From Clostridia bacterium (lineage in GTDB: Bacteria; Bacillota; Clostridia; Oscillospirales; CAG-272): a DNA stretch of 64,000 nucleotides. The position numbers and the translations under genes are program-made. Below the pieces are notes generated by a model. That model made no database searches and had not been told where the DNA came from. It was given only the letters and a program-made list of their open reading frames with translations. The stretch covers positions 964 to 64,963 of the forward strand of contig JAFTLQ010000015.1 in assembly GCA_017455905.1 (NCBI GenBank), read 5' to 3'. Shown here piece by piece: positions 1 through 54,697 of this stretch (positions are counted from its first letter, which is position 1; every line of letters begins with the position of its first letter).

Positions 1-1
1 G

Positions 2-3000
2 TGGGGCACATCCACGGTCGTGACAGCGGCTACCTGTACGGGGAACGGCGTATCTCGCCATACGTGCGCACGTTGTAGCGTTACGGAAGAGTATGCTGTA
101 GAAGCACTCGGTCATTACGAAGTCACGGACCGCGCGGTAGCACCTACCTGTACGGCAACGGGTCTTACCGAGGGCAAGCACTGCTCGGTTTGCGGTACGA
201 TTCTTGTCGCACAGGAGACGGTGGATGCGCTTGGTCATACGGCCGGCGCGGATGCTACCTGTACGACGGCACAGATCTGTACGGTGTGTTCTTCTGTTTT
301 GACTCCTGCGCTTGGTCACACACCCGGTGCGGAGGCTACCTGCACGACGGCACAGATCTGTACGGTATGCGAGACCGTTCTTGTGCCTGCGCTCGGCCAC
401 GCATACGGCGAAATATCTATCGTTTGGACAGCAACACGGGCAACAGGTATGTCCTGTTATGCTGTCAGCACCTGTGCGCATGATACGGAATCCGATCACG
501 TGATCACCATTGCGGCTGAGGTGACGGAGGCTGTTACCGCAGATCCTTCGTGCGACGGTGAGGGTGTGCTGACGTATACGGCTTCCTTCAATGAATCAGC
601 GATTGCTGCCGCTCTGCCTGCCACCGGACTGACGGAGGAGCAGAAAACAACGATCACGCAGAGTTATACACAAGCGACCGGACTTTTGACGGACGCCAAG
701 CCGACGGAAACGGCGGCGATCGACGCGACGGGTCATAGCTACACAACCTCTGTAACGGCACCGACGTGTACGGCGGTTGGTTACACGACGTATACGTGTA
801 CGTGCGGTGAAAGCTATAAGAGCGATTACGTGGACGCTACCGGACACACCGTTACAGCGTTGGCGGCGGTAGCACCTACGTGCGATGAGGACGGCAAAAC
901 GGCCGGTTCTTGGTGCCCTGTTTGTCGCACTACGTTTGTGGAACAGCAGACGGTGGCGGCACTTGGCCACGATTACACGTCCGTTGTGACGAATCCCACT
1001 TGTACGGCCGGCGGTTACACGACGCACACCTGTACGGTTTGCTCAGCCAGCTACCGCGATCAAACGACGTATGCTACGGGTCACACACCAGGTGCCGCCG
1101 TTCGTGAAAACGAGGTAGCGGCTACCTGTACAACGAGCGGCTCGTACGATACGGTCATTACGTGCACCGTTTGTCGTGAGGAAATTTCTCGCGACACAAC
1201 GACGGTCCGTGCGCTCGGTCACAGCATCAGTGACGTAGCGTACGCATGGACGGATGACTACACGGCTTGTACGGCGACGGTTACGTGTCTGCGCGGTTGC
1301 GGCATGTCGGAAACAATCCAAGCGACCGTGACGAAGACGGTACGTGCGGCAACCTGTACGGACTCCGGTCTTATCACGTATAGAGCTACCTTTGGCGGAT
1401 TCAGCGGTGCGTCTGTCGCTGTTTCGACACAGACGGTTACCGGGATTCTTCCCGCTTTGGGACATGATCTGACCTTGATTCCTGCCGTTGCACCTTCGTG
1501 TACCGAAGACGGTTACACAGCCGGTATCGGTTGTGCTCGTTGTAAGTACATACATCAGGCTCGGACGGTTGATCCCGCTACGAGACACACCTATACCGCC
1601 ACAGTAACGTCCCCCACCTGCACCGAGGACGGATATACCACCTACACCTGTGCGGTGTGCAATGACAGCTACACGGCCGATGCCGTGAATGCTACCGGCC
1701 ACAATTATCAGGCGGTCGTAACGGCGGCGACCTGTACGACAGGCGGCTATACGACGTACACCTGTGCGGTGTGCGATGACAGCTACACGGCCGATGCCGT
1801 GAATGCTACCGGCCACGATTATCAGACGGTCGTAACTGCGCCTACTTGTACCGAGGACGGTTATACGACGTATACCTGTAAAAACGGTTGCGGTTACAGC
1901 TACACAGCAGATGTCACGGATAAGCTGCCGCACACGGTCGTTACCATCGCGGCTATTTCGCCGACCTGTACGACGAAGGGCGTAACCGAGGGCTCGTACT
2001 GCTCGATCTGCATGACGGTGCTGGTGGCTCAGATGCCTATCGACGCGCTCGGGCACAACGAAGTTGTTGATTCAGCCGTTGCTCCCAAGTGTACCGAAAC
2101 AGGTCTTACGGAAGGCTCGCACTGCGACAGATGTAATGAAGTCTTTACAGAACAAGAGGTCCTTCCCGCGCTCGGTCACACCGAGGTGATCGACGAGGCG
2201 GTCGCTCCCGATTGCACGAATACCGGTCTTTCCGAGGGTAAACACTGCTCGGTTTGTAACGATGTTTTGATTGCTCAAGAGATCGTTCCCGCACTCGGCC
2301 ACACCGAGGTGGTTGACGAGGCAGTGGCTCCCGGATGCCTTACCAACGGTAAAACCGAGGGTAAGCACTGCTCGGTTTGTGGACGCACGTTGGTAGCACA
2401 GGCACCTATAGCGGCTACCGGCCATTCCATTGTCGTTGATGCGGCGGTCACTCCCGACTGTGTCAACACCGGTCTTACCGAGGGCAGACACTGCACGGTG
2501 TGCGGTTACGTAGCACAGGCGCAGACGATCGTTCCTGCAAAGGGACATACCGAGGTGACCGACAAGGCTATCGCTGCTACCTGTACAGAAACGGGTCTTA
2601 CCGAGGGTAAGCACTGCTCGGTTTGTAATGAGGTTCTGGTAGCACAGACGGAGGTTGCCGCTCTTGGTCACACCGAAGTCATTGACGAGGCTGTCGATCC
2701 TACCTGTACGGAACCCGGTAAAACCGAGGGCTCGCACTGCGAAACCTGCGGTGAGGTCTTTGTGGCACAGGAGAGCATCGCGGCACTTGGACATACCTAT
2801 GAGTCTGTTGTAACGGCGGCGACCTGTACGACAGGCGGCTATACGACGTATACCTGCTCGGTTTGTTCGCACAGCTACGAGTCCGATCGTGTGGTAGCGT
2901 ACGGACATTCTTATGAGGCCGTTGTAACCGAGCCTACCTGTACAACCGGCGGTTATACAACACACACCTGCTCGCGCTGCAATGTCAGCTACCGCGATAC

Positions 3001-6000
3001 GTACGTAGTAGCTCTTGGTCATACCGAAGTCATTGACGAGGCAGTCGATCCTACCTGTACGAAAACAGGTCTTACGGAAGGCTCACACTGCGGCCGTTGC
3101 GGCGCGGTGCTTGCAGCACAGGTTGTTGTTTCAAAGCTTGACCACACCTACGTTGCCGAGGACGAGGCAACCATTGCGACGACGTGCGAGAGACGCGGTT
3201 ACCGTACCAACACCTGTACGGTGTGTGGCTACACCTACGAGACCCCGACGGGTGATTCCGTTGAGGAGCACATCGAGAAGTACCGCCAGTACCATGAGGC
3301 CAAGGCGCCGACGTATACGGCGGTCGGTTGGGAGGCGTACATTGACTGCCGCGCCTGCTCGTACACGGAGTACAAGGAGATCCCCATGCTGGAGGCAGGT
3401 ATCATCCGCGACTACGATCTCTTTATGAAGAATCTGCTTCTGCTGGAGGATCTGGCGTTCCGCTATGCCAAGGAGATGCCGGGTGTGGATCCGCTGAACC
3501 TTGTCATTAAGTACATTCGTACGGGCGTGGATCGCTACAATTCGGGCTCGTGGGGCATTATGGCCGGCTACGAGGACAAGGGCTTTGCCGACTTCGTATC
3601 GAAGTACGAGGACGATTACAATGCCAACCTCACTGAGGAGTCCGAGATGCTCACGGTCAGCTGGCTGAAGAATCTCGGCAACATCCAGCTGCCGAACGGA
3701 CAGGTGACCGACATCGGACACATGTTCGGTACGATGGACATTACCTATCACAACAACTACGGCGTCAATCACGCGGACGTCGCCGGTTGGGCGGGCGACC
3801 TGGTCGACCTGCTCAGCGTCAGCGACCAGTTCGGCGTGACGGCGACGACGTTTGAGGCGCTGGTCGCGGAGGTGCGCGAGAACTATCTGCTTCGCGGTAC
3901 GTTCCCCGAGGAGACCAAGGAGGGCTCGTTCAGCCTGACGGATATGTACGGCGACCTGGACGGCCTGTACGTGATGAACATGCTGCAGGCACAGTCGTAC
4001 GAGCAGGGTGACCTTACGCAGATCATCGAGGAATACTTCACCGAGGATCTGTCGGACGCGGACCGTGCGGCGTACTTCATCCGTACGCGTATGAACGGCG
4101 TCAGCCTGCGCTCGGCTCTGCGCGAGGCGGTGTACAATGCGTACACGGGCAACAAGGTCATTGCGACCCTGGAGGCTACGCGTGAGTTTGAGTCGGAGGA
4201 TCTTGAGACGCTGCGCCGTGCGTGCTGCTATGCCTTTGCGGATTACATCTGCGAGCTGGCAGGCGACTACGTCGGCTCGGTAGAGAACTCGTACTTTACG
4301 GTCTTTGAGTCGGAGAGCTCGACGCTGGCACCCGGCATTACGCAGGATCTCAAGAAGGCGACGAGCCGGGACGGCAAGCAGATGGTCTATTACATCGCGA
4401 CGGCTGACCTGACGCGCGACGACGTCAACATTTACGCCAACTACAAGGATAACGATCCGACCGAATGGGGCATGCAGCGCGTGCTGGATCAGGCGAACGC
4501 TGCACAGAACAAGTACGGCGACCCCGAGAGCGAATATTACATTCCCAACTACAACGTTATCGTTTCCATCAACGGCTCGGGCTACAACATGCAGACGGGT
4601 GAGCCGGGCGGCCTTTTGGTCATGAACGGCGTGGAATATCAATCCATCAACTCCAGCGGCTTCTTCGCCATCCTCAAGGACGGCACGCCGATGATCGGTA
4701 CGCAGGCGGATTACGCGATTTACAAGTCGCAGATCGCCGAGGGTATCGCCGGCTTCGGAAGCACGCTGATCAAGGACGGCAAGATCACCATCACCGGCAC
4801 GAGCGATTACTACAATCAGCGTGCCAGCCGTACGGCGGTCGGTATCACGCGTACCGGCAAGGTCGTGTTCATGGTTCTGGACGGCCGTCAGGAGCCCTTC
4901 TCCTGCGGCGGTAGTATGGAGGAGATCGCGCAGATCATGTTTGAGGCCGGCTGCGTGCAAGCGGTCAACCTCGACGGCGGCGGATCGACGACCTTCGTTG
5001 CTAAGGAAGAGGGCGCCGAGGAGCTGGCGGTCATCAACCGCCCGTCCGACGGCTTTGCCCGTTCGGTCAGTACCTCTTTGATCATGGTTTCGACGGCTCC
5101 GAGCTCGACGGCCTTTGATCACGCGGTGCTGGACACCGAGATGGATTATCTGACGGTCGGCACGTCGCTGACCGTGACGCCTTCCGGCGTCAGCGCGACG
5201 GGTAACGCCGCCGAGCTGCCCGAGGGATATACGTGGGCGGTATCCGACGGTACGATCGCGTCGATCGATGAAAACGGCGTCGTGACGGCGCTGGAAAACG
5301 GCGACGTCGACGTGCAGCTGATGCTGGGCGACGAGATCCTTGGTGAAAAGACGCTGCACGTGGTCGTGCCCGACACGATCTATTTCCCCAAGAGCAATAT
5401 TGATGCGGTCTACGGCGAAAAGGCCGAGCTGCCCGTCATTGCTCTGTACAATAACAAGCCCGTGGCCATTACGGCCGACGATCTCGGCTTTATGCTCAGT
5501 AATGAGAAGGCCGGTCATATGGAAGGCATCTACTTCATCGGTGACGAGGATGCGGGCATCAAGAAGCTGGTCATTACGGCGGTCCTCCTTGCCAACGAGG
5601 AGGTCGGCGCGAACGTCAACGTTTCGCTTTACAAGCAGGGCGAGAACTCCTTTGACTTCGATCAGGCGACGGGCGGTAACCGCGAGTTTGCCTGGTACCG
5701 CGACGTGTCCAACGCGACGACGGAGAACGGAAGTCTGTACGAGATCATCGATCCGAATAAGGATATGGTAACCTCCTACACCTTCGCCATCGACATGACG
5801 CAGATCCCGATCCCCGAGCAGCTGGCGGATCTGACGACGATGCTGCCCGGCGCTGACGTGGAGGGGGCATCTGCATGGACCTTCCTTTGCCAGCTGGCCG
5901 AGCGTGTCAGCGTGCTGACCGAGATCAAGGCGGTCATGCAGCTGGATCCGAGCGTCACGGTGGATTATTCCGAGGTCCAGCTGATCAACGAATATTTCGA

Positions 6001-9000
6001 GCTGGTCGATACGGTGCTTGACGAGGAGACGAACACGCTGACCATTACGCTTAAGTGGATTGACCAGACGCAAGCGATCGATGTGGAGACGGCCAATCCC
6101 CTGTGCATGCTTACCGGCATCAAGCTGACGCCGAAGGACGATGCGACCTGGAAGACGGGCGAGCAGCTGCCTCTGGTACACAGCGGTGAGGTCAGCTATG
6201 CGATCTATCTGCGTGCCAACGCGCTGTACACCTTCTCCGCTAAGGAAGAGAACCAGAAGATCTACGGTCTGAAGCCCTTCATCAATCCCGATAATGCTTC
6301 GGAAAAGGGCGGTTATTTCGAGTCCGTGTATGCGACCCTTGAGGATACGTACACGCTGTCCCGTGCCGTCAAGAACGGTTGGGTCATCGACGAGGGCGGT
6401 TATGCGTACTACGTGGACGGCACCAAGCTGACCGGCATTCAGTTGATCGACGGCTACTACTACAACTTGGGCGAAAACGGCATCAACGTCGGTAAGACCA
6501 AGTACACCGGTCTGTTTGAGGAGGACGGCGTTATCCGTTATTCTCAGTACGGTGAGGTAGCGGTCGGATGGCACATGATCAATAATGCATGGCACTACTT
6601 TGACGAGCAGACGGGCAACGCGTACGTCGGTGAGAAGACGATGGCTGTCGATGGCGCGACGATCACGTATCTGTTCGACGAGAACGGTCGTGTGACCGAG
6701 GACGTGTGGTATACCAACGCGAGCGGTCAGACCTATCGCTACTACGGTCCTTCCTACTACTATCGCCTTTGGAAGGATATTGACGGTGAAACCTACTTCT
6801 TCACCTACACCGGCCCTGTGGCCAAGGGTGTATACCCCATTCAGAACAACCCGCACGAGCCTATATACTATTATGTATTCCATCAGCAGACGGGTGAGCT
6901 GATCTCCATCTGTGACGGCTTCGTGACGCACAGCGACGGCAGAACGTATTACTATCCCACCTACGGCTCCGGCGCGATGCTGTACGGTTTGAACAAGATC
7001 GGTGACTACTATTACTACTTCGCTGCAAGCGGTGAGTACATGGGTCAAGTCCTGACGGGTGTCATCACGGTGCCTCCGTATGCATCTAACGGCATTCTGA
7101 CCTTTGACAAGACGCTGACCTTCCACGATACGCTGTGGTATGCGATCGATGAAAACGGCGAGCCGATCACCGAGATCGAGGACGTGACGTATCCGTTCTT
7201 CTATGAGCAGGGTGACAACACGTACTGTTATCTTGCGCCCGGTCAGCTTGCTTACGGTCTGCAGAAGATCGGTGATTACTACTACTACTTCTCGACGAGC
7301 TCGGGTGCTATGCGTACGGGTGAATACACCGTTGTATGGTATGCATCGAACGAACTTCTCACGAAGGATCACACCTTCCTCTTCGATGCGGAATACGGCT
7401 ACGCCGTGGATGAAAATGGCAACCCGCTGACCTCGCTCGACTTCGGCGAGGACGTACCGGTCGATCCCATCGATCCGCCGGTCGAACAGACGTATCCTGC
7501 CTTTATTGAGAAGGACGGCAAGGTGTATTACTACTTCTCGGAGGAGGCCCAAGCGTTTGGCTTCCAGAAGATCGGTGATTATTACTACTACTTCTCGACG
7601 AGCTCGGGTGCTATGCGTACGGGTGAATACACCGTTGTATGGTATGCATCGAACGAACTTCTCACGAAGGATCACACCTTCCTCTTCGATGCGGAATACG
7701 GCTACGCCGTGGATGAAAATGGTAACCCGCTGACCTCGCTCGACTTCGGCGAGGACGTACCGGTCGATCCCATCGATCCGCCGGATGAGCAGGAATATCC
7801 TGCCTTCCTTGAGAAGGACGGCAAGGTGTATTACTATCTTGCGAAGGATCGCGTGGCGACCGGCTGGTATACGATCGACGGTCAGTGGCATTACTTCGAC
7901 CAGACCACCGGTGCGGCGTACGTTGGCAAGCACACGGTGGACGTGGACGACATGCACATCGTGTACATCTTTGACGAGCACGGTATGGTGACCGCGGACG
8001 CTCTTGTGACGGATCCCGACGGGCAGACGCTTCTGTATAACGGTCCTGACCGTTACAGAAACGCTTGGATGACGGTCGATGAGGTAACGTATTACTTTAC
8101 CGACACGGGTGCGGCTGCATGCGGTGTATACGCCGTACAGAACGTCGGTGAGCCGGAGTACTCCTACGTCTTTGATCAGACGACGGGTGCATTGATCTCC
8201 ATCTGCGACGGTCTCGTGACGCACAGCGATGGTAAGACGTATTACTATCCCACCTACGGCTCCGATGAGACGGCTTGCGGTCTTACGAAGGTTGGTAATT
8301 ACTATTACTACTTCGACGAGAACGGCGTGGCTCTCACGGGCGAACAGATGGTGACGGTATTGGCATCGAACGGCAAACTGACCTTGCCGAAGACGATCAC
8401 CTTCGACGAGGAGAAGCTGTGGGCGATCGATGAGAACGGTCAGCCTCTGACGCATATTGCCGATGCACAGTATCCGCTCTTCTTTGAGGAGGAAGGCAAG
8501 CTCTATTATTACATTGCCGCAGGACAAAAGGCAAAGGGCTTCTATTCCATTGATGGTCAGTGGCATTACTTCGACCAGACCACCGGTGCCGTTTACGTTG
8601 GTAAGCAGACCGTCAAGGTCGGCTCGCTCTCTATCACGTACGTCTTTGACGAGCGCGGTATCGTGACCGAGGACGTCCTTGTGACGGGTACCGATGGCAA
8701 GACGTATCTGTATCACGGTCCCGACTGCTACAGAGACGCTTGGAAGTCGATCGACGGCGAGACGTACTACTTCAACTATACCGGTGCGATGGTCAAGGGC
8801 CTGTACCCTGTGCAGAATGCCGGTGAGCCGGAGTACTACTACGTCTTTGATCAGGCGACAGGTGCGCTGATCTCCATCTGTGACGGCTTCGTGACGCACA
8901 GCGACGGAAAGACGTATTACTATCCCACCTACGGCTCGGCAGCTGTGATGTACGGTCTTCATAAGATCGGTGATTACTATTACTACTTCGATTCCAACGG

Positions 9001-10237
9001 CGTTGCTCGCACGGGCGAGCAGACGATCCCTGCGTATGCGTCGAATGGCATTCTGACCTTGCCGAAGACGATCACCTTCGACGAGGAGAAGCTGTGGGCG
9101 ATCGATGAGAACGGCGAGCCGCTCACCAACATCGAGGATGTGACGTATCCGCTCTTCTTCGAGCAGGATGGAGTGACGTACTATTATCGCAAGGCGGATC
9201 GCGTAGTGACCGGCTGGTACGAGATCGACGGACGTTGGCATTACTTCGACAAGACGACCGGTGCGGCGTACGTTGGCAAGCATACGCTGAGCGTTGGCTC
9301 GGCGCGCGTGACCTTCGTCTTCGACGAGTACGGTATGGTAACGGAGGATGCCTGGTATGTCGATGCGGATGAGAAGACGTATCTGTATTACGGTCCCGAC
9401 TGTTACAGAAGCACTTGGAAGACGGTCGACGACGAGACGTACTACTTCAACTATGCCGGTGTGCTCGTTAAGGGCCTGTACCCTGTGCAGAACGACAATG
9501 AGCCGGAGTACTACTACGTCTTTGACCAGGCGACAGGTGCGCTGATCTCCATCTGCAACGGCTTCGTGACGCACAGCGACGGCACGACGTATTACTATCC
9601 CACCTACGGTGAGGCCTCGGTGGACTACGGTCTTAAGAAGATCGGTGACTACTATTATTACTTCGGCTCCAGCGGTGCGGCACACACGGGTGAGCAGACG
9701 ATCCCTGCGTATGCAGCGGGCGGTCTGTTGGAGACGTCGGTCGTGCTTCGCTTCGATCCGACGCAGCTGTATGCCGTCGATGAGGATGGCAATCCGCTGA
9801 CCTCGTTGTCCTTCGACTCGGAGAAAGAGCCGCCGAAGTTTGACGAATATCCTGCGTTCGTGGAGGTGGACGGTAAAACGTATTACTACCTCGATGAGGA
9901 TACCGTAGCCTACGGCTTCCAGAAGATCGGTGACTACTTCTACTACTTCTCCACGACGGATGGCGCTATGCGTACCGGTGAATACACGGTACAGGCTTAC
10001 ACGTCAAACGGTTACCTGGAGGAAGCGCGCGCCTTCTTCTTCCATGAAACGTACGGATACGCCATGGAAAAGGCCGACGGCGAGCCGATCACAGCGATCG
10101 AGCCTCTGCCCGAGGACGTACTGCAGGACGGCGTGGACCGGGTGCTTGGTGAGCCTATGCTGCTCGTGCTGATCTTTGTCAGCTGCGTGGGCATCTTCGT
10201 CGTCTGGGCATTCGTATTCAATAAGCGCTACCGTTGA
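2..10237 (+). CDS. giant multidomain cell-surface protein (5' end lies outside the window)
   Basis: The reading frame is already open at nt 2 ([14 protein letters not shown]...), so the track start at 20 is an internal codon. About two dozen ~35-38-aa Cys repeats (GH..V..PTCT..G.T...C..C) run up to ~nt 3250. [17 protein letters not shown]...[20 protein letters not shown]...[10 protein letters not shown] (~4380-5090) resembles the phosphodiester glycosidase (DUF2233/NAGPA-like) family. An Ig-like Big_2-like segment lies at ~5150-5370. From ~6400 there are many GW.YFD / KIGDYYYYF cell-wall-binding-type repeats in ~215-aa super-repeats. The C-terminal hydrophobic helix is [20 protein letters not shown] followed by NKRYR. 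A terminator follows the stop. Confidence 0.9.
7262..7784 (+). repeat. two near-identical 220-nt segments at a 303-nt offset inside the giant gene
   Basis: 7262-7481 and 7565-7784 differ at only a few positions (gattactac vs gattattac, ggcaaccc vs ggtaaccc). Both encode [73 protein letters not shown]. The off-frame track ORFs 7203-7430 and 7506-7733 are almost identical for the same reason. Confidence 0.9.
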
Positions 10238-46707: not shown

Positions 46708-47181
46708 ATGAAAAGGGTAACAAGTGTAGGAATACTTTTAGCGGTGCTGGCTGCGGCTCTCTATGCCATCAACGCTCCTTTTTCGAAGCTACTGCTCGAT
46801 TATATGCCCTCTACACTGATGGCAGGATTTTTGTATCTTGGCGCAGGGCTGGGGATGGGTATTATCGCTTTGTTCAGAAGATTCAAAAATGCTGAGCGAA
46901 CGGAAGAAAAAATAACGAAAGCAGACCTGCCGTACACGGTGGCTATGATAATTCTCGACATTGCTGCCCCGATTTTCTTGCTCCTTGGACTTTCGTACAC
47001 CTCTGCGGCAAACGCCTCGCTTCTCAACAATTTTGAAATCGTAGCTACGGCACTTATCGCATTGGTAATTTTCAAAGAGAAAATTAGCCCAAGACTGTGG
47101 CTTGGTATTCTGTTCGTTACAGTTTCCTGTGCGCTCCTCTCAATTGAGGATATAGCAAGTTGCAGAAAAGCTGTCGCTTGA
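46708..47181 (+). pseudogene. DMT/EamA family transporter, first half only (3'-truncated)
   Basis: One EamA domain (5 TM helices, ~150 aa), whereas the family normally has two. Homology ends near LLSIED (~47150) and a stop follows after a short unrelated tail. Confidence 0.55.
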
Positions 47182-47185
47182 ACGA

Positions 47186-47833
47186 AACGCTCCGTTTAAT
47201 CGCTCGGATTTTTTTGAAGACTATGTTGATCTGTGCGATTATCAACTTGATAGAGCTGTTCCAAAGGAAAGCAAAATCATCACGAGCGATGGCGTTTTTG
47301 AAAAGGTACTGGATATTCGTCGTATCAATGATGGCATAGACAGCAAACGATTCGACTTGATTGATGAATACATCGCAGAAAACAGCCCTAATGCTGAGCC
47401 TAATCAACTACGCGGATTAGACGATTATGATAGGTGGAAACGCGTGAGTGATATGAGAAACAGAAATCGCAGTCAATCTCGTTTCTTGAAAGAAAACCTG
47501 ATGCGGAATATTCAAGAGCGCTCAAATGGCGAAAGTGCTTTGTCGTATTTCGTTGACTCAATTCAGGAGAAGGCGCTATATCTTTTGGATGAGCCTGAAA
47601 ACAGTTTATCTCCTCAAAATCAATTGCAACTGAAATATTTTATTGAAGATTCAGTAAGAAATTTTGGTTGTCAGTTTGTTATTTCTACACACTCACCGTT
47701 CTTGCTCTCTCTTAGAGGCGCACATATATACAACATAGATGAAACACCGCCTACGGAGAGAAAATGGACAGAGCTTGATTGCGTAAAAGTGTATCATGAT
47801 TTCTTTGTTGAGCAAAGTGATAAATTTAATTAA
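47186..47833 (+). pseudogene. AAA/ABC-like ATPase C-terminal fragment (5'-truncated, no Walker A)
   Basis: The frame is open from 47156 without a start. It contains YLLDEPENSLSP (Walker B/D-loop type) and ISTHSPFLL (H-loop type), but the N-terminal P-loop region is absent. Confidence 0.55.
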
Positions 47834-48319
47834 TTGAAAGCGATCTATCCTCCCGTCGGTGAATACGGGAAGCAAGGGTGAGCATCATAAAAATTCGTCT
47901 TATTCTGTCTTTTTAGCGCTGTTTATTGACGTTTAGTGATACCTATTACATATAGATCACTTTGTTATACAAAAGTGACAGAAGTTGACTTTTGCCAAAT
48001 GGTAAAAACCCTTTTTTGCGGACGCTTTTTGCTCGTTTTGACTTCTCAAGCACACAAAAGTTGTCAAAACGCGCTCTTTGCGCTCTTATCTCCGTGTACT
48101 CCGGTTCTGTTTATGGTCAAAGATGTGGTCAAATCCAAGTACCGAATGATTGATATGTGGTCACGAAATCCCAAAAAGCGCAAGCTGCTTTCGGGGTGCC
48201 CCCGAAGATAAGAAAACGCAAAAATCATGTGATAAACATACCGCCATCAGAGAAGAAACGCACCAACCGCCACATGTGGTCAGCCGTGCAGAAAAAAAGA
48301 TAAACATGTGGTTAGGCTA

Positions 48320-48348
48320 TTGATAAAATTCCAAAAACATGTTATAAT
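48320..48348 (+). promoter_or_regulatory. consensus extended -10 promoter of the candidate ncRNA
   Basis: TTGATA (48320-48325), 17-nt spacer, TGtTATAAT (48340-48348). Confidence 0.7.
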
Positions 48349-48354
48349 GCGTTT

Positions 48355-48670
48355 GCGCTATATGCGTCGTCGACCTGCTCCTATGCGAGAATGCGGCAAA
48401 ATACTAACACTCTTGTATGAGACGTGACTGTGTCTCTTAACACTATTGGTAGAGGGCTTATCCTTAAAGTTTAACACAGGTTGGTGCGTTTGTAAGTTTG
48501 ACACCGTAACGCCTGAGCCAAAATTAGTCAAGATAGGGCACGTGACACGAAAGTGCATCACGATATGCAGCCTGTATGTAAATGTTAGTTTAAGACAGGT
48601 GACGAAATGTTTAAATGACGTGAACGGAACTTACATCCCCGAACCGTTAGGTTCGGGGGCTTTTTATTTT
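48355..48670 (+). ncRNA. candidate orphan non-coding RNA (~310 nt), class unknown
   Basis: It lies between a near-perfect promoter and a strong intrinsic terminator. There is no SD-preceded ORF on the plus strand. Several local hairpins are present (GAGAC-N8-GTCTC at ~48421-48438, CCTGT-N19-ACAGG at ~48571-48599). I could not match it to any RNA family from memory. Confidence 0.45.
48637..48670 (+). terminator. intrinsic terminator of the candidate ncRNA
   Basis: CCCCGAACC / GGTTCGGGG stem, GTTA loop, then GCTTTTTATTTT. Confidence 0.85.
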
Positions 48671-48697
48671 CTCGGGTTGTTGCATTTTAACTCTTGC

Positions 48698-48721
48698 GAA
48701 GGGCTTTGTCAAGCCCTTTTC
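48698..48721 (+). terminator. second (tandem) terminator
   Basis: GAAGGGCTT / AAGCCCTTT stem, TGTC loop, followed by TTTT. Confidence 0.6.
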
Positions 48722-48899
48722 GCCGTTTGTTTGCTACTCGTCGGTCGAGCACGACGAGCTTAACGCAAATAGTTGCTACGATTTGGTCGCGCGCAAATTG
48801 TGACGCAAGGAGTCGCATCCGTAATAGCGGTATGCAAGGCCCCTTGAAAATAAAAATCAGCACTCAGAATTTGATATGCAGTAAACAAAGAAAACGGGT

Positions 48900-49430
48900 T
48901 CAGCCGTTGATGCCGTAAGCGCCCGTCAGAGGATCCTTGAAAATGCCGATTTCAGGCGTTGCGAAGGTGAACACAACGAACAGAACGGCAATTATGCAGA
49001 GAACGGCAAAAGCAATCTTGGGTGATTTGCACGCTGTCGTTCCATTGTTAAACTGCCGCGTTTCGTAGATATATGCAATCACAGCAGAAACAAAGAAATT
49101 CGCGATGTTGATCCAATCAGGCGACCGACCGATCACGCCGTTGTAGGTATAAAAGAGAACAGGAATAAGGACAAGGCCGAGAAGTGCGCCTTTTAACTTA
49201 ACGCACCAAAATTCTTCACGATCCTTGAAGAAAAAGCTCTGCACAATAGCAAAGATGAACATCGGCCAAAAGAGCAGCTTCATGTGCTCCCACGTGGATT
49301 CGTTCACGCCCGAAAAGGGCGCGACCCATGCAGATCCGCCTGTCCAATCGTATAAAAAATGTAGTAGCGTACCGGCGAGCGACGTTACCGCAAAGCCCAT
49401 CAGCTGCCACAAACCTATTGATCGTTTCAT
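48900..49430 (-). CDS. DUF6512-like membrane protein
   Basis: LLHFLYDWTGGSAWVAPFSGVNESTWEHMKLLFWPMF pattern as I recall it for the DUF6512 family, with 5 TM helices. Confidence 0.7.
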   Translation of the reverse strand: MKRSIGLWQLMGFAVTSLAGTLLHFLYDWTGGSAWVAPFSGVNESTWEHMKLLFWPMFIFAIVQSFFFKDREEFWCVKLKGALLGLVLIPVLFYTYNGVIGRSPDWINIANFFVSAVIAYIYETRQFNNGTTACKSPKIAFAVLCIIAVLFVVFTFATPEIGIFKDPLTGAYGING

Positions 49431-54383: not shown

Positions 54384-54697
54384 AGAAAAAGGGATATAGC
54401 CGTGAAGGTTTGTTTGGAAATATCAATCATTATGATGAAAGAGGCAGGAAAGTGGGACAGAGTCGCCCTGGTTTCTTCGGAGGTTACAACCACTACGATG
54501 AAAATGGAAAAAAGGTAGGGCGTAGCTCTCCTGGCTTGTTTGGTGGCTACAATCACTATGATGAACATGGTAATAGGAGTGGTAGAACCAGTCCCGGATT
54601 ATTTGGAAATCTAAATCATTATGATGAACACGGCAGAAGAACGGGAACCAGTACCCACGGCTTGTTTGGCGGCTTTAACCATAAGGGTAAGAAATAA
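54380..54697 (+). CDS. Gly/His-rich tandem-repeat protein (five ~20-aa GLFGG.NHYDE.G...G.S repeats)
   Basis: GLFGNINHYDERGRKVGQSRP / GFFGGYNHYDENGKKVGRSSP / GLFGGYNHYDEHGNRSGRTSP / GLFGNLNHYDEHGRRTGTSTH / GLFGGFNHKGKK. ATGA overlap with the upstream gene. Confidence 0.65.
   Translation: MKKKGYSREGLFGNINHYDERGRKVGQSRPGFFGGYNHYDENGKKVGRSSPGLFGGYNHYDEHGNRSGRTSPGLFGNLNHYDEHGRRTGTSTHGLFGGFNHKGKK

Follow-up and report, generated by a model that had tools for sequence, protein, structure and literature searches.

A candidate structured noncoding RNA gene of gut Clostridia, present or absent as a whole promoter-to-terminator cassette

Large, intricately folded bacterial RNAs of unknown function are rare, and they have repeatedly turned out to embody unusual biochemistry, as exemplified by ribozymes, RNA-guided nucleases, and RNA cages. 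A short locus in a Clostridia bacterium raises the question of whether one more such RNA is at hand. Within the 64,000-nucleotide (nt) stretch of contig JAFTLQ010000015.1 analyzed here (hereafter the window, to which all plain coordinates refer), a promoter and a terminator enclose a stretch that an earlier reading of the letters alone, the original prediction, took for a novel orphan noncoding RNA. Is there an RNA gene at this place, and if so, what kind of RNA does it specify? We consider it likely that 48320-48670 is a stand-alone gene for a structured noncoding RNA, organized as an accessory cassette that extends from promoter to terminator, whose product acts in trans through its fold. 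The orphan-RNA reading is supported by conservation, by covariation, and by the lack of a matching Rfam family, and transcription is predicted from the signals at both ends.

These signals are readily described. The promoter combines TTGATA (48320-25), a 17-nt spacer with a terminal TG (48340-41), and TATAAT (48343-48), with a start predicted at ~48355; the terminator consists of CCCCGAACC-GTTA-GGTTCGGGG (48637-58) followed by CTTTTTATTTT, and is called by the terminator scan with 10 pairs, 7 of them G-C. Both had been named in the original prediction and both were recovered by the scans. Its proposal of tandem terminators held only in part: the terminator just described is genuine, but the second hairpin (48698-48721), although it exists, receives no call from the terminator scan, lies outside the conserved unit, and is an unrelated hairpin of the flank. 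In the scanned region, five promoter-like sites were seen where 3.6 are expected by chance, and three terminator-like sites where 2.0 are expected; taken alone, the promoter and terminator of the window do not exceed chance expectation. Comparison with other sequences must therefore carry the case, and the two signals derive their significance from the conservation of their positions in three lineages.

Homologous loci, whose search the original prediction had set as a check, were found with sequence, promoter, and terminator conserved. The first were reached by a protein query with a spurious open reading frame (ORF) of the window, 105 amino acids (aa) in length, and eight predicted proteins of 150-190 aa (P0121-P0128) share the translation of 48362-48660 and diverge fully just past the terminator. 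At the DNA level, three loci (L179, L196, and L197) align to the window from the -35 element to the terminator T-run at ~89-94% overall identity, with unrelated flanks, and contigs with an identical DUF6512 neighbor, all from ruminant-gut metagenomes, are 98.9-100% identical to the window over the RNA region. A metagenome scan with an invariant 20-mer from the GNRA hairpin described below returned 16 loci, namely, one of the same type as the window (L191), L195, 13 human-gut contigs, and one chance match. The homologues fall into three lineages: the ruminant-gut contigs (89-97% identical to the window; nhmmer E-value 1.9e-84 for L179), the single intermediate contig L195 (1.2e-36; 82% identity to the window in the core and 49% in the 5′ part), and the 13 human-gut contigs (~1e-14 to 1e-16; 66% and 39%, respectively), which are near-identical to one another. 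The human-gut host is a prevalent uncultured Clostridia bacterium, with Flintibacter and Pseudoflavonifractor as its nearest named relatives by the neighboring LUD-domain (lactate-utilization-family) protein. The RNA family belongs to gut Clostridia of ruminants and humans, probably Oscillospiraceae. A profile search of all 198 comparison loci gave no further copies, BLASTN of 47850-48900 against phage and plasmid collections gave no match, nor did scans of viral contigs with a 19-mer and with the invariant 20-mer, and the latter was absent from the first 200 files (of 408) in the supplement of Fremin and Bhatt (2021). An antisense ORF of the human-gut copies, used as a protein query, gave only near-identical matches.

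Homology between the window and the other loci spans 48317-48671, from the -35 element through the T-run, and these limits also hold in L196, L197, L195, and the 13 human-gut loci, again with unrelated flanks. A TTGACA-like -35 and a TATAAT-like -10 element stand at a constant distance from the RNA body in L179, L196, L197, L195, and the human-gut loci, with spacer sequences that differ among them, and every lineage has a body of ~300 nt and an intrinsic terminator at the equivalent place. The middle pair of the terminator varies among ruminant-lineage copies, being A-U in the window, G-C in L179, and U-A in L196; the terminator hairpins of L195 and the human-gut lineage are unrelated in sequence and equivalent in position. 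The unit has what marks a stand-alone small RNA (sRNA) gene, that is, its own promoter and Rho-independent terminator at conserved positions, and would be transcribed from that sigma-70 promoter and stopped at that terminator.

The same boundaries recur between loci with and without the RNA. In locus L129, which carries both flanks of the window (47871-48317 and ~48680-48720 / 48833-48894), the counterparts of 48317 and ~48680 are joined and the unit is missing (48318-~48672); L132 carries the right flank only. In L179, L191, L195, L196, and L197, unrelated sequences flank the unit. The RNA is absent from L200-L204, the syntenic loci of relatives of the human-gut host, where the LUD-domain neighbor is 84, 77, and 68% identical to that of the human-gut host, and 80 DUF6512 loci of related metagenome-assembled genomes share the flanking regions only, never the RNA. 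These alignments show that the predicted RNA gene behaves as an accessory cassette of the moron type: homologous flanks occur with and without it, and what varies is the whole unit from promoter to terminator.

Some of the compared loci hold further small features. In L203 and L204 (3106-3290), from a relative of the human-gut host, the syntenic intergenic space has a promoter-like TTGACT-17-TATAAT with a terminator hairpin almost directly behind it and no RNA body; around the -10, this site looks similar to the promoter of the human-gut RNA (AAAACATAATATAAT). In L197, a second promoter-to-terminator unit of ~80 nt lies between the repeat region and the RNA gene (130-260), and downstream, on the other strand, at 650-921, there are tRNA-like 3′ ends without an ARAGORN call, one of which has an anticodon-loop-like TTTTAAC (possible UUA anticodon).

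What the cassette encodes is best judged from its fold. The alignment shows a conserved multi-helix structure with a pseudoknot for the predicted RNA, and the compensatory base-pair changes that the original prediction had asked for are present. RNAalifold applied to ten distinct sequences gives 51 pairs, 17 of them with compensatory changes. When a curated set of 43 nested pairs was tested against 500 shuffles and against columns slid by 1-3, 98.6% of cells were paired, compared to 83.5% in the shuffles (0/500 reach the observed value) and 28-46% in the slid columns, and 16 pairs were changed on both sides, compared to 14.0 and 1-4, figures to be read with the proviso that the shuffle control ignores kinship among the sequences and overstates significance. 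Several pairs are G·U, which would be C·A on the other strand, and thus the plus strand is indicated as the functional one.

The individual elements, located in Table 1, combine variable helices with strictly kept sequences. The position of the 5′ hairpin is occupied in all lineages by stems of different sequence (M: GCGCA/UGCGC; H: GUAAU/AUUAC; read by eye). In the three-way junction, GCG (48393-95) pairs with CAC (48441-43) in the closing helix, hairpin P1a (48396-99/48413-16) displays a conserved AUAC.A in its loop, hairpin P1b occupies 48419-23/48432-36, and the junction sequence CUUAA is conserved. The central domain is composed of P2 (48455-58/48516-19), P3 (48477-80/48512-15), and P4 (48482-86/48502-06), accompanied by the invariant unpaired blocks CC-UUAAAGUUU(A/G)ACAC and GCGUUU..AAGUUUGAC. 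From the apical loop of P4, a 7-bp pseudoknot, spotted by eye and then tested on a re-alignment, reaches the segment before the terminator; 77/77 of its cells are paired, two pairs are changed on both sides, and slid controls give 9-52%, with UGAAGUU/AACUUCA as the human-gut strands. The GNRA hairpin is identical in all lineages, the sole exception being one G-C to G·U change in L005. P6 (48570-75/48595-600) is followed by the conserved blocks GUGAC(G/C)AA and GUUUAAAUG, both invariant and the latter with a palindromic core, and two copies of AAGUUU(A/G)AC(A/G)C make up the other invariant parts. The internal hairpins seen by the original prediction, GAGAC-N8-GTCTC and CCTGT-N19-ACAGG, correspond to P1b and part of P6, respectively, and both carry compensatory changes (5/6 and 4/6 pairs changed on both sides); the direct repeat TAACACT that it reported is there as well.

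Two resemblances to tRNA biology were set aside. Binding of a T-loop or tRNA elbow by the two AAGUUU(A/G)AC blocks was rejected because one block is taken up by the pseudoknot, and a likeness of 48447-55 to tRNA-Pro was rejected because the 9-mer match depends on a window-specific substitution.

Table 1. Features of the predicted RNA gene and its immediate flanks (window coordinates)
Feature	Position	Strand	Basis
Sigma-70-type promoter, extended -10	48320..48348	+	Scan 11/12 plus TG; position kept across lineages
Predicted RNA, ~316 nt (~315-nt gene)	48355..48670	+	nhmmer homology, G·U pairs, no conserved ORF
5′ hairpin GCGC-UAUAU-GCGU	48355..48367	+	Read by eye
Three-way junction	48393..48443	+	RNAalifold; helices 1-3 with 1, 2, and 5 pairs changed on both sides
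Central domain	48455..48519	+	Helices 4-6 100% paired; 2, 1, and 1 pairs changed on both sides
Pseudoknot 5′ strand GUAAGUU, apical loop of P4	48492..48498	+	Pairs with 48628-34
Bulged GNRA hairpin CGUGA-CAC-GAAA-GUG-CA-UCACG	48541..48562	+	Invariant
Hairpin P6 GCCUGU/ACAGGU, variable loop	48570..48600	+	Helix 8, 100% paired
Pseudoknot 3′ strand AACUUAC, directly upstream of terminator	48628..48634	+	Pairs with 48492-98
Intrinsic terminator	48637..48670	+	9-bp stem, GTTA loop, T-run; scan call
Upstream noncoding repeat region	47871..48317	.	Context, not RNA; repeats, homology to L129/L123/L149/L099
Flank hairpin and promoter-like site TTGACA-17-TAAAAT	48684..48721	-	Scan 11/12; conserved with L129, L132

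A structured RNA gene has to be set against several other explanations, of which the most immediate is that the unit is a small-protein gene or the decayed remnant of a coding gene, represented by the 105-aa ORF or by ORFs of the P0121 type. Gene callers do predict 150-190-aa ORFs with 68-92% protein identity over the homologous DNA, and decayed genes (ATPase and EamA fragments) lie nearby. However, as the original prediction had stated, no ORF with a Shine-Dalgarno sequence occurs between promoter and terminator; the sole long ORF (48446-48763, TTG start) runs through the terminator, and the P0121-type ORFs cross it as well and diverge completely beyond, while the window has an in-frame stop where the ORFs of its close relatives continue. 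No reading frame is common to the lineages, L195 and the human-gut lineage included: the longest plus-strand stop-free stretches, 29 codons in L195 and 46 codons in L184, lie in different frames, the conserved core carries 1-2-nt indels between lineages, and the ORFs of the surrounding ~1-kb coding desert have no Pfam match. The missing shared frame, the core indels, and the stop in the window together exclude a coding gene or a recognizable remnant, the very outcome by which the original prediction had offered to be judged, and the compensatory changes and G·U pairs indicate selection on RNA, which leaves the protein-gene explanation extremely unlikely. P0121-P0128, as they stand in public protein collections, are annotation artefacts, that is, translations through both the RNA gene and the terminator that ends it. 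A leader or riboswitch acting in cis, with the terminator as its expression platform, would account for the pseudoknot 3′ strand directly adjoining that terminator and for a complexity that resembles a riboswitch aptamer. Such a role finds hardly any room in the genomic setting: the downstream gene is convergent in the window (DUF6512), L195, and all human-gut loci, three of the five contexts, and for this reason the unit is not a 5′ leader, in line with the original prediction; the same-strand ORFs downstream in L179 and L191 are ~290-300 nt away and mutually unrelated in sequence; no regulated same-strand gene lies directly downstream; and homology always stops at the T-run.

An element acting at the level of DNA, for instance a small nonautonomous mobile element, an origin, or part of a site for attachment or recombination, could explain why the unit adjoins clustered repeats resembling recombinase arm sites and why it is polymorphic in presence with sharp boundaries. 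Those boundaries, however, coincide with promoter and terminator; the alignments, as read, show no terminal inverted repeats or target-site duplications there; the human-gut copies have no neighboring repeats; and covariation maintains pairing in the RNA, G·U pairs among it, and such pairing would have no meaning in duplex DNA. A DNA-level element is accordingly very improbable. A further alternative is a conventional base-pairing sRNA. Mobile elements and prophages frequently encode such regulators, and the own promoter and terminator, the lack of a common neighboring gene, and several invariant unpaired blocks, one of them C-rich, would all suit it. A conserved single-stranded segment, such as CCCUUAAAG or GUUUAAAUG, would in that case base-pair to mRNAs, perhaps over their Shine-Dalgarno regions, and the helices would serve stability only. 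Yet 315 nt with at least eight conserved helices, a pseudoknot, and a GNRA hairpin are far more elaborate than typical sRNAs of Firmicutes, conservation extends over ~190 nt instead of one seed, and no target is known from this analysis, which made no search aimed at one; this explanation, too, appears unlikely.

Returning to the structured, fold-dependent RNA that we favor, its proposed life can be outlined as follows. The RNA would be read from its own extended -10 promoter and ended by its own terminator, and would fold into a 5′ hairpin, a three-way junction, a pseudoknotted central domain, the GNRA hairpin, and a further hairpin, interspersed with invariant unpaired blocks. In the ruminant lineage, it would come first among the genes within an integrative-element end, as an RNA moron on a mobile element. 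It would act in trans through its three-dimensional fold, either by associating with itself or by serving a protein or ligand as scaffold or partner; trans action via the fold is the most likely mode, and a simple antisense or cis-leader role is less likely.

Several observations weigh against this interpretation, in addition to the inflated shuffle control noted above. Only about three independent lineages were found, and the human-gut copies are near-identical, hence most compensatory cells trace to few events. The z-scores of the minimum free energy are unremarkable (-1.06 for the window and -0.53 for L184). The transcript ends at 48355 and 48670 are predicted positions, and a trans-acting, structure-based mode is suggested by the architecture only. 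Three positions (48442, 48451, and 48461) set the window copy and the identical L001-L004 apart from all other ruminant-type copies; elsewhere in the family, 48442 and 48461 are invariant or nearly so. The window copy also has a C-A mismatch at 48394/48442 in the junction helix where 9/10 sequences have C-G, and may be mildly degenerate. Turning to the mobile element, the window has no tRNA-Pro fragment and no tRNA, which makes the element reading indirect here, no tyrosine integrase is found in its annotated part, from ~45 to 52 kb, and the human-gut copies show no signs of mobile elements within a few kb.

The element reading itself originates in the noncoding repeat region, which in the window, as in L179, L196, and L197, precedes the RNA promoter by 40-190 nt. 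It contains four ACATGTGGTCA-like repeats (48121-32, 48153-64, 48272-83, and 48304-15); of the five matches to ATGTGGTYA in the 64 kb, four fall within 192 nt, compared to 0.7 expected. Homologous regions with TGTGGTCA repeats occur in L123 (5515-5800), L149 (120-575), and L129 (2385-2755), L099 also has a homologous region, and an 86-nt core (48079-48164) is 96.5% identical to L129, compared to only ~72% in the DNA of the neighboring protein gene. In L123 and L149, the homologous region abuts a 45-nt 3′ fragment of tRNA-Pro(GGG) that extends from the anticodon loop through CCA and has a terminator behind it, and the same fragment is present in L111, L115, L120, L175, and L179, in the last of these beside TGGTCA repeats ~0.8 kb downstream of the RNA; L108 has an intact tRNA-Pro beside DUF6512. 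A tRNA fragment beside arm-type repeats is the classic picture of an attachment (att) junction of tRNA-targeting integrative elements, and the repeat region may accordingly be read as the att-proximal end, with arm-type sites, of an element targeting tRNA-Pro(GGG). Alternatively, it could be a transcribed RNA ending in a tRNA 3′ half: on the strand equivalent to the window's minus strand, its relatives present a TTGACA-17-TACAAT promoter, ~200 nt, the 45 nt of tRNA-Pro(GGG) 3′ sequence, and a terminator. On the element reading, the window copy has most likely lost the tRNA fragment, its element end having decayed. The human-gut copies have no tRNA within several kb.

Similar repeats were seen elsewhere. 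The IMG/VR provirus L007 has five tandem (A/C)(T/G)GTGGTCA repeats with an 11-nt period (7380-7570), and these TGTGGTCA repeats lie, as judged by eye, between a tRNA 3′ end and a putative integrase gene. Their place by a tRNA end suggests the arm-site idea, and L007 is a probable independent example of the repeat as an arm-type site; a repeat-pair scan of viral contigs returned mostly chance matches in coding DNA. In L149 (170-300, reverse strand), a tRNA-like sequence with a T-arm-like GTTGGTTTGACTCCAAC and an anticodon-loop-like CTTATAA, without an ARAGORN call, is inserted between the promoter and the repeat region. The repeats were also considered as DnaA boxes or iterons, a possibility rejected for want of a consensus match and of replication genes.

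The wider neighborhood is that of accessory DNA. The ~1-kb coding desert of the original prediction (47834-48900) and its lower G+C content were borne out, and no gene is a constant neighbor of the RNA across loci. A serine recombinase gene starts 1.6 kb downstream of the RNA (the prediction had put the element at 1.4 kb), but the unit is not linked to it: 80 viral loci with serine recombinases 50-56% identical to that of the window carry no RNA homologue, and the actual neighbor of the unit is the repeat-bearing region. The minus-strand promoter-like site of the right flank runs from 48712 to 48684, with its -35 element within the hairpin at 48698-48721, whose sequence is conserved in L129 and L132, both without the RNA; a comparable TTGACA-17-TACAAT precedes the repeat region in L123 and L149. 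Such a site would fire antisense into the RNA gene, making convergent transcription possible. A perfect 13-nt inverted repeat (48256-68/48479-91) flanks the RNA promoter, and its upstream arm lies in a stretch absent from L129 and unaligned in L179. An invertible promoter was nevertheless dismissed, given that the inverted repeat is confined to the window, one of its arms doubles as a conserved helix strand of the RNA (the 5′ strand of P3/P4), and all recovered copies share one orientation.

Upstream, two truncated genes abut at 46708-47833. One, a small AAA_15/AAA_21 ATPase gene, is 5′-truncated and frame-disrupted, with its 3′ part in the ORF at 47357-47833, homology over 47160-47887, and intact relatives of ~268 aa; the other is a 157-aa single-domain EamA ORF. 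Homologues of the ATPase are scattered over numerous unrelated settings, among them an integrative element that has two tyrosine integrases (L097), and homology to ATPase-bearing contigs stops at 47853-47887, so the RNA is not reached through that neighbor. Farther off, an ORF in the phage region of the window (54407-54681) has three repeats spaced 63-126 nt apart that encode a GLFG..NHYDE.G motif, and positions 1-10100 hold long in-frame repeat families with periods of 123, 303, and 675 nt, typical of a giant surface protein.

If confirmed, these findings would provide a new family for RNA databases, a clean case of a mobile element with structured RNA cargo, and probably a redefinition of the cow-rumen-1 motif as part of a larger RNA. 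The carriers are abundant uncultured gut Clostridia of livestock and humans, the RNA has a testable pseudoknotted fold and appears to move as a bare RNA gene, and annotation pipelines call spurious 150-190-aa proteins over it. A bolder and doubtful extension would make the family a new class of ornate RNA, be it catalytic as a ribozyme, a machine that binds a ligand or protein, or a particle that assembles itself in the ROOL/GOLLD fashion. It would spread among gut Clostridia as a minimal promoter-RNA-terminator cassette located where integrative elements that target tRNAs end, and would be active in element-host conflict or tRNA biology, with cow-rumen-1 as its most conserved fragment.

How, then, does the RNA relate to known systems? 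In keeping with the original prediction, which could match it to no known family, a search of the whole window against Rfam at gathering thresholds gave nothing, and the family is previously uncurated there. The nearest approach is cow-rumen-1, a 61-nt hairpin motif (Rfam RF02946; Weinberg et al., 2017, PMC5737381), whose model aligns at the equivalent hairpin in all three lineages: 48474-48537 in the window (25.9 bits, E=0.0022 in a 1.3-kb search), 3532-3599 in L184 (21.5 bits), and 585-650 in L195 (17.3 bits), in each case far below the gathering score of 53.4 bits. Common to both are a CA..GG / CC..G outer helix plus an inner helix, a GUU..AG.UUGAC apical loop, a UAA internal loop, and a tail end of AGAGG/AGGG; the model pairs fall on P3/P4 without noncanonical flags, these helices are supported by covariation, and UAA and UGAC are matched in all three lineages. 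Relatives of the window likewise come from ruminant-gut samples. In contrast, the conserved tail of cow-rumen-1, CCGGACA.GAUCGAAG, is missing here, with only scattered matches (CC..A...UC.A..AGG) to CCGGACA-GAUCGAAGAGG, and a 61-nt hairpin faces a multi-domain RNA of ~315 nt in a comparison made via model and consensus only. The cow-rumen-1 consensus sequence gave no match in any locus by nhmmer and BLAST, and a viral scan with its conserved tail returned only coding sequence in a called ORF. Judged from the match that recurs at a homologous place, the common loop, the UAA, and the origin from ruminants, the central hairpin and cow-rumen-1 are probably distantly related, and cow-rumen-1 may represent the best-conserved part of a sister branch.

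ROOL and GOLLD, which occur near tRNAs, in prophages or elsewhere (PMC5737381), would be the closest counterparts in context and style. They, too, are orphan RNAs of complex fold first seen in rumen or environmental data, and in one lineage the RNA described here lies by a putative tRNA-Pro element end with a prophage adjacent, and in another its setting is ordinary chromosome. At ~580 and ~800 nt they are larger than the ~315 nt here, no homology in sequence or structure was seen, and their covariance models gave no match at E<=10 in 47700-49000, nor at gathering scores in the window. The raiA and OLE RNAs are large structured orphan RNAs of Firmicutes (PMC5737381). With them the RNA shares the phylum, stand-alone transcription (predicted here), many conserved nucleotides, and pseudoknotted folds; they differ in being inherited more stably, whereas the RNA here, without an Rfam match, is patchy and cassette-like. 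The functions of raiA and OLE are at best partly known. A final parallel is found in the morons of prophages and the sRNA genes of mobile elements. Classic morons encode proteins, and known element-borne sRNAs are mostly short antisense regulators; the cargo here would be a large structured RNA, on a carrier element that is itself inferred. What unites them is their organization, in which an autonomous promoter-gene-terminator unit is variably present and finds its boundaries at the promoter and the terminator.

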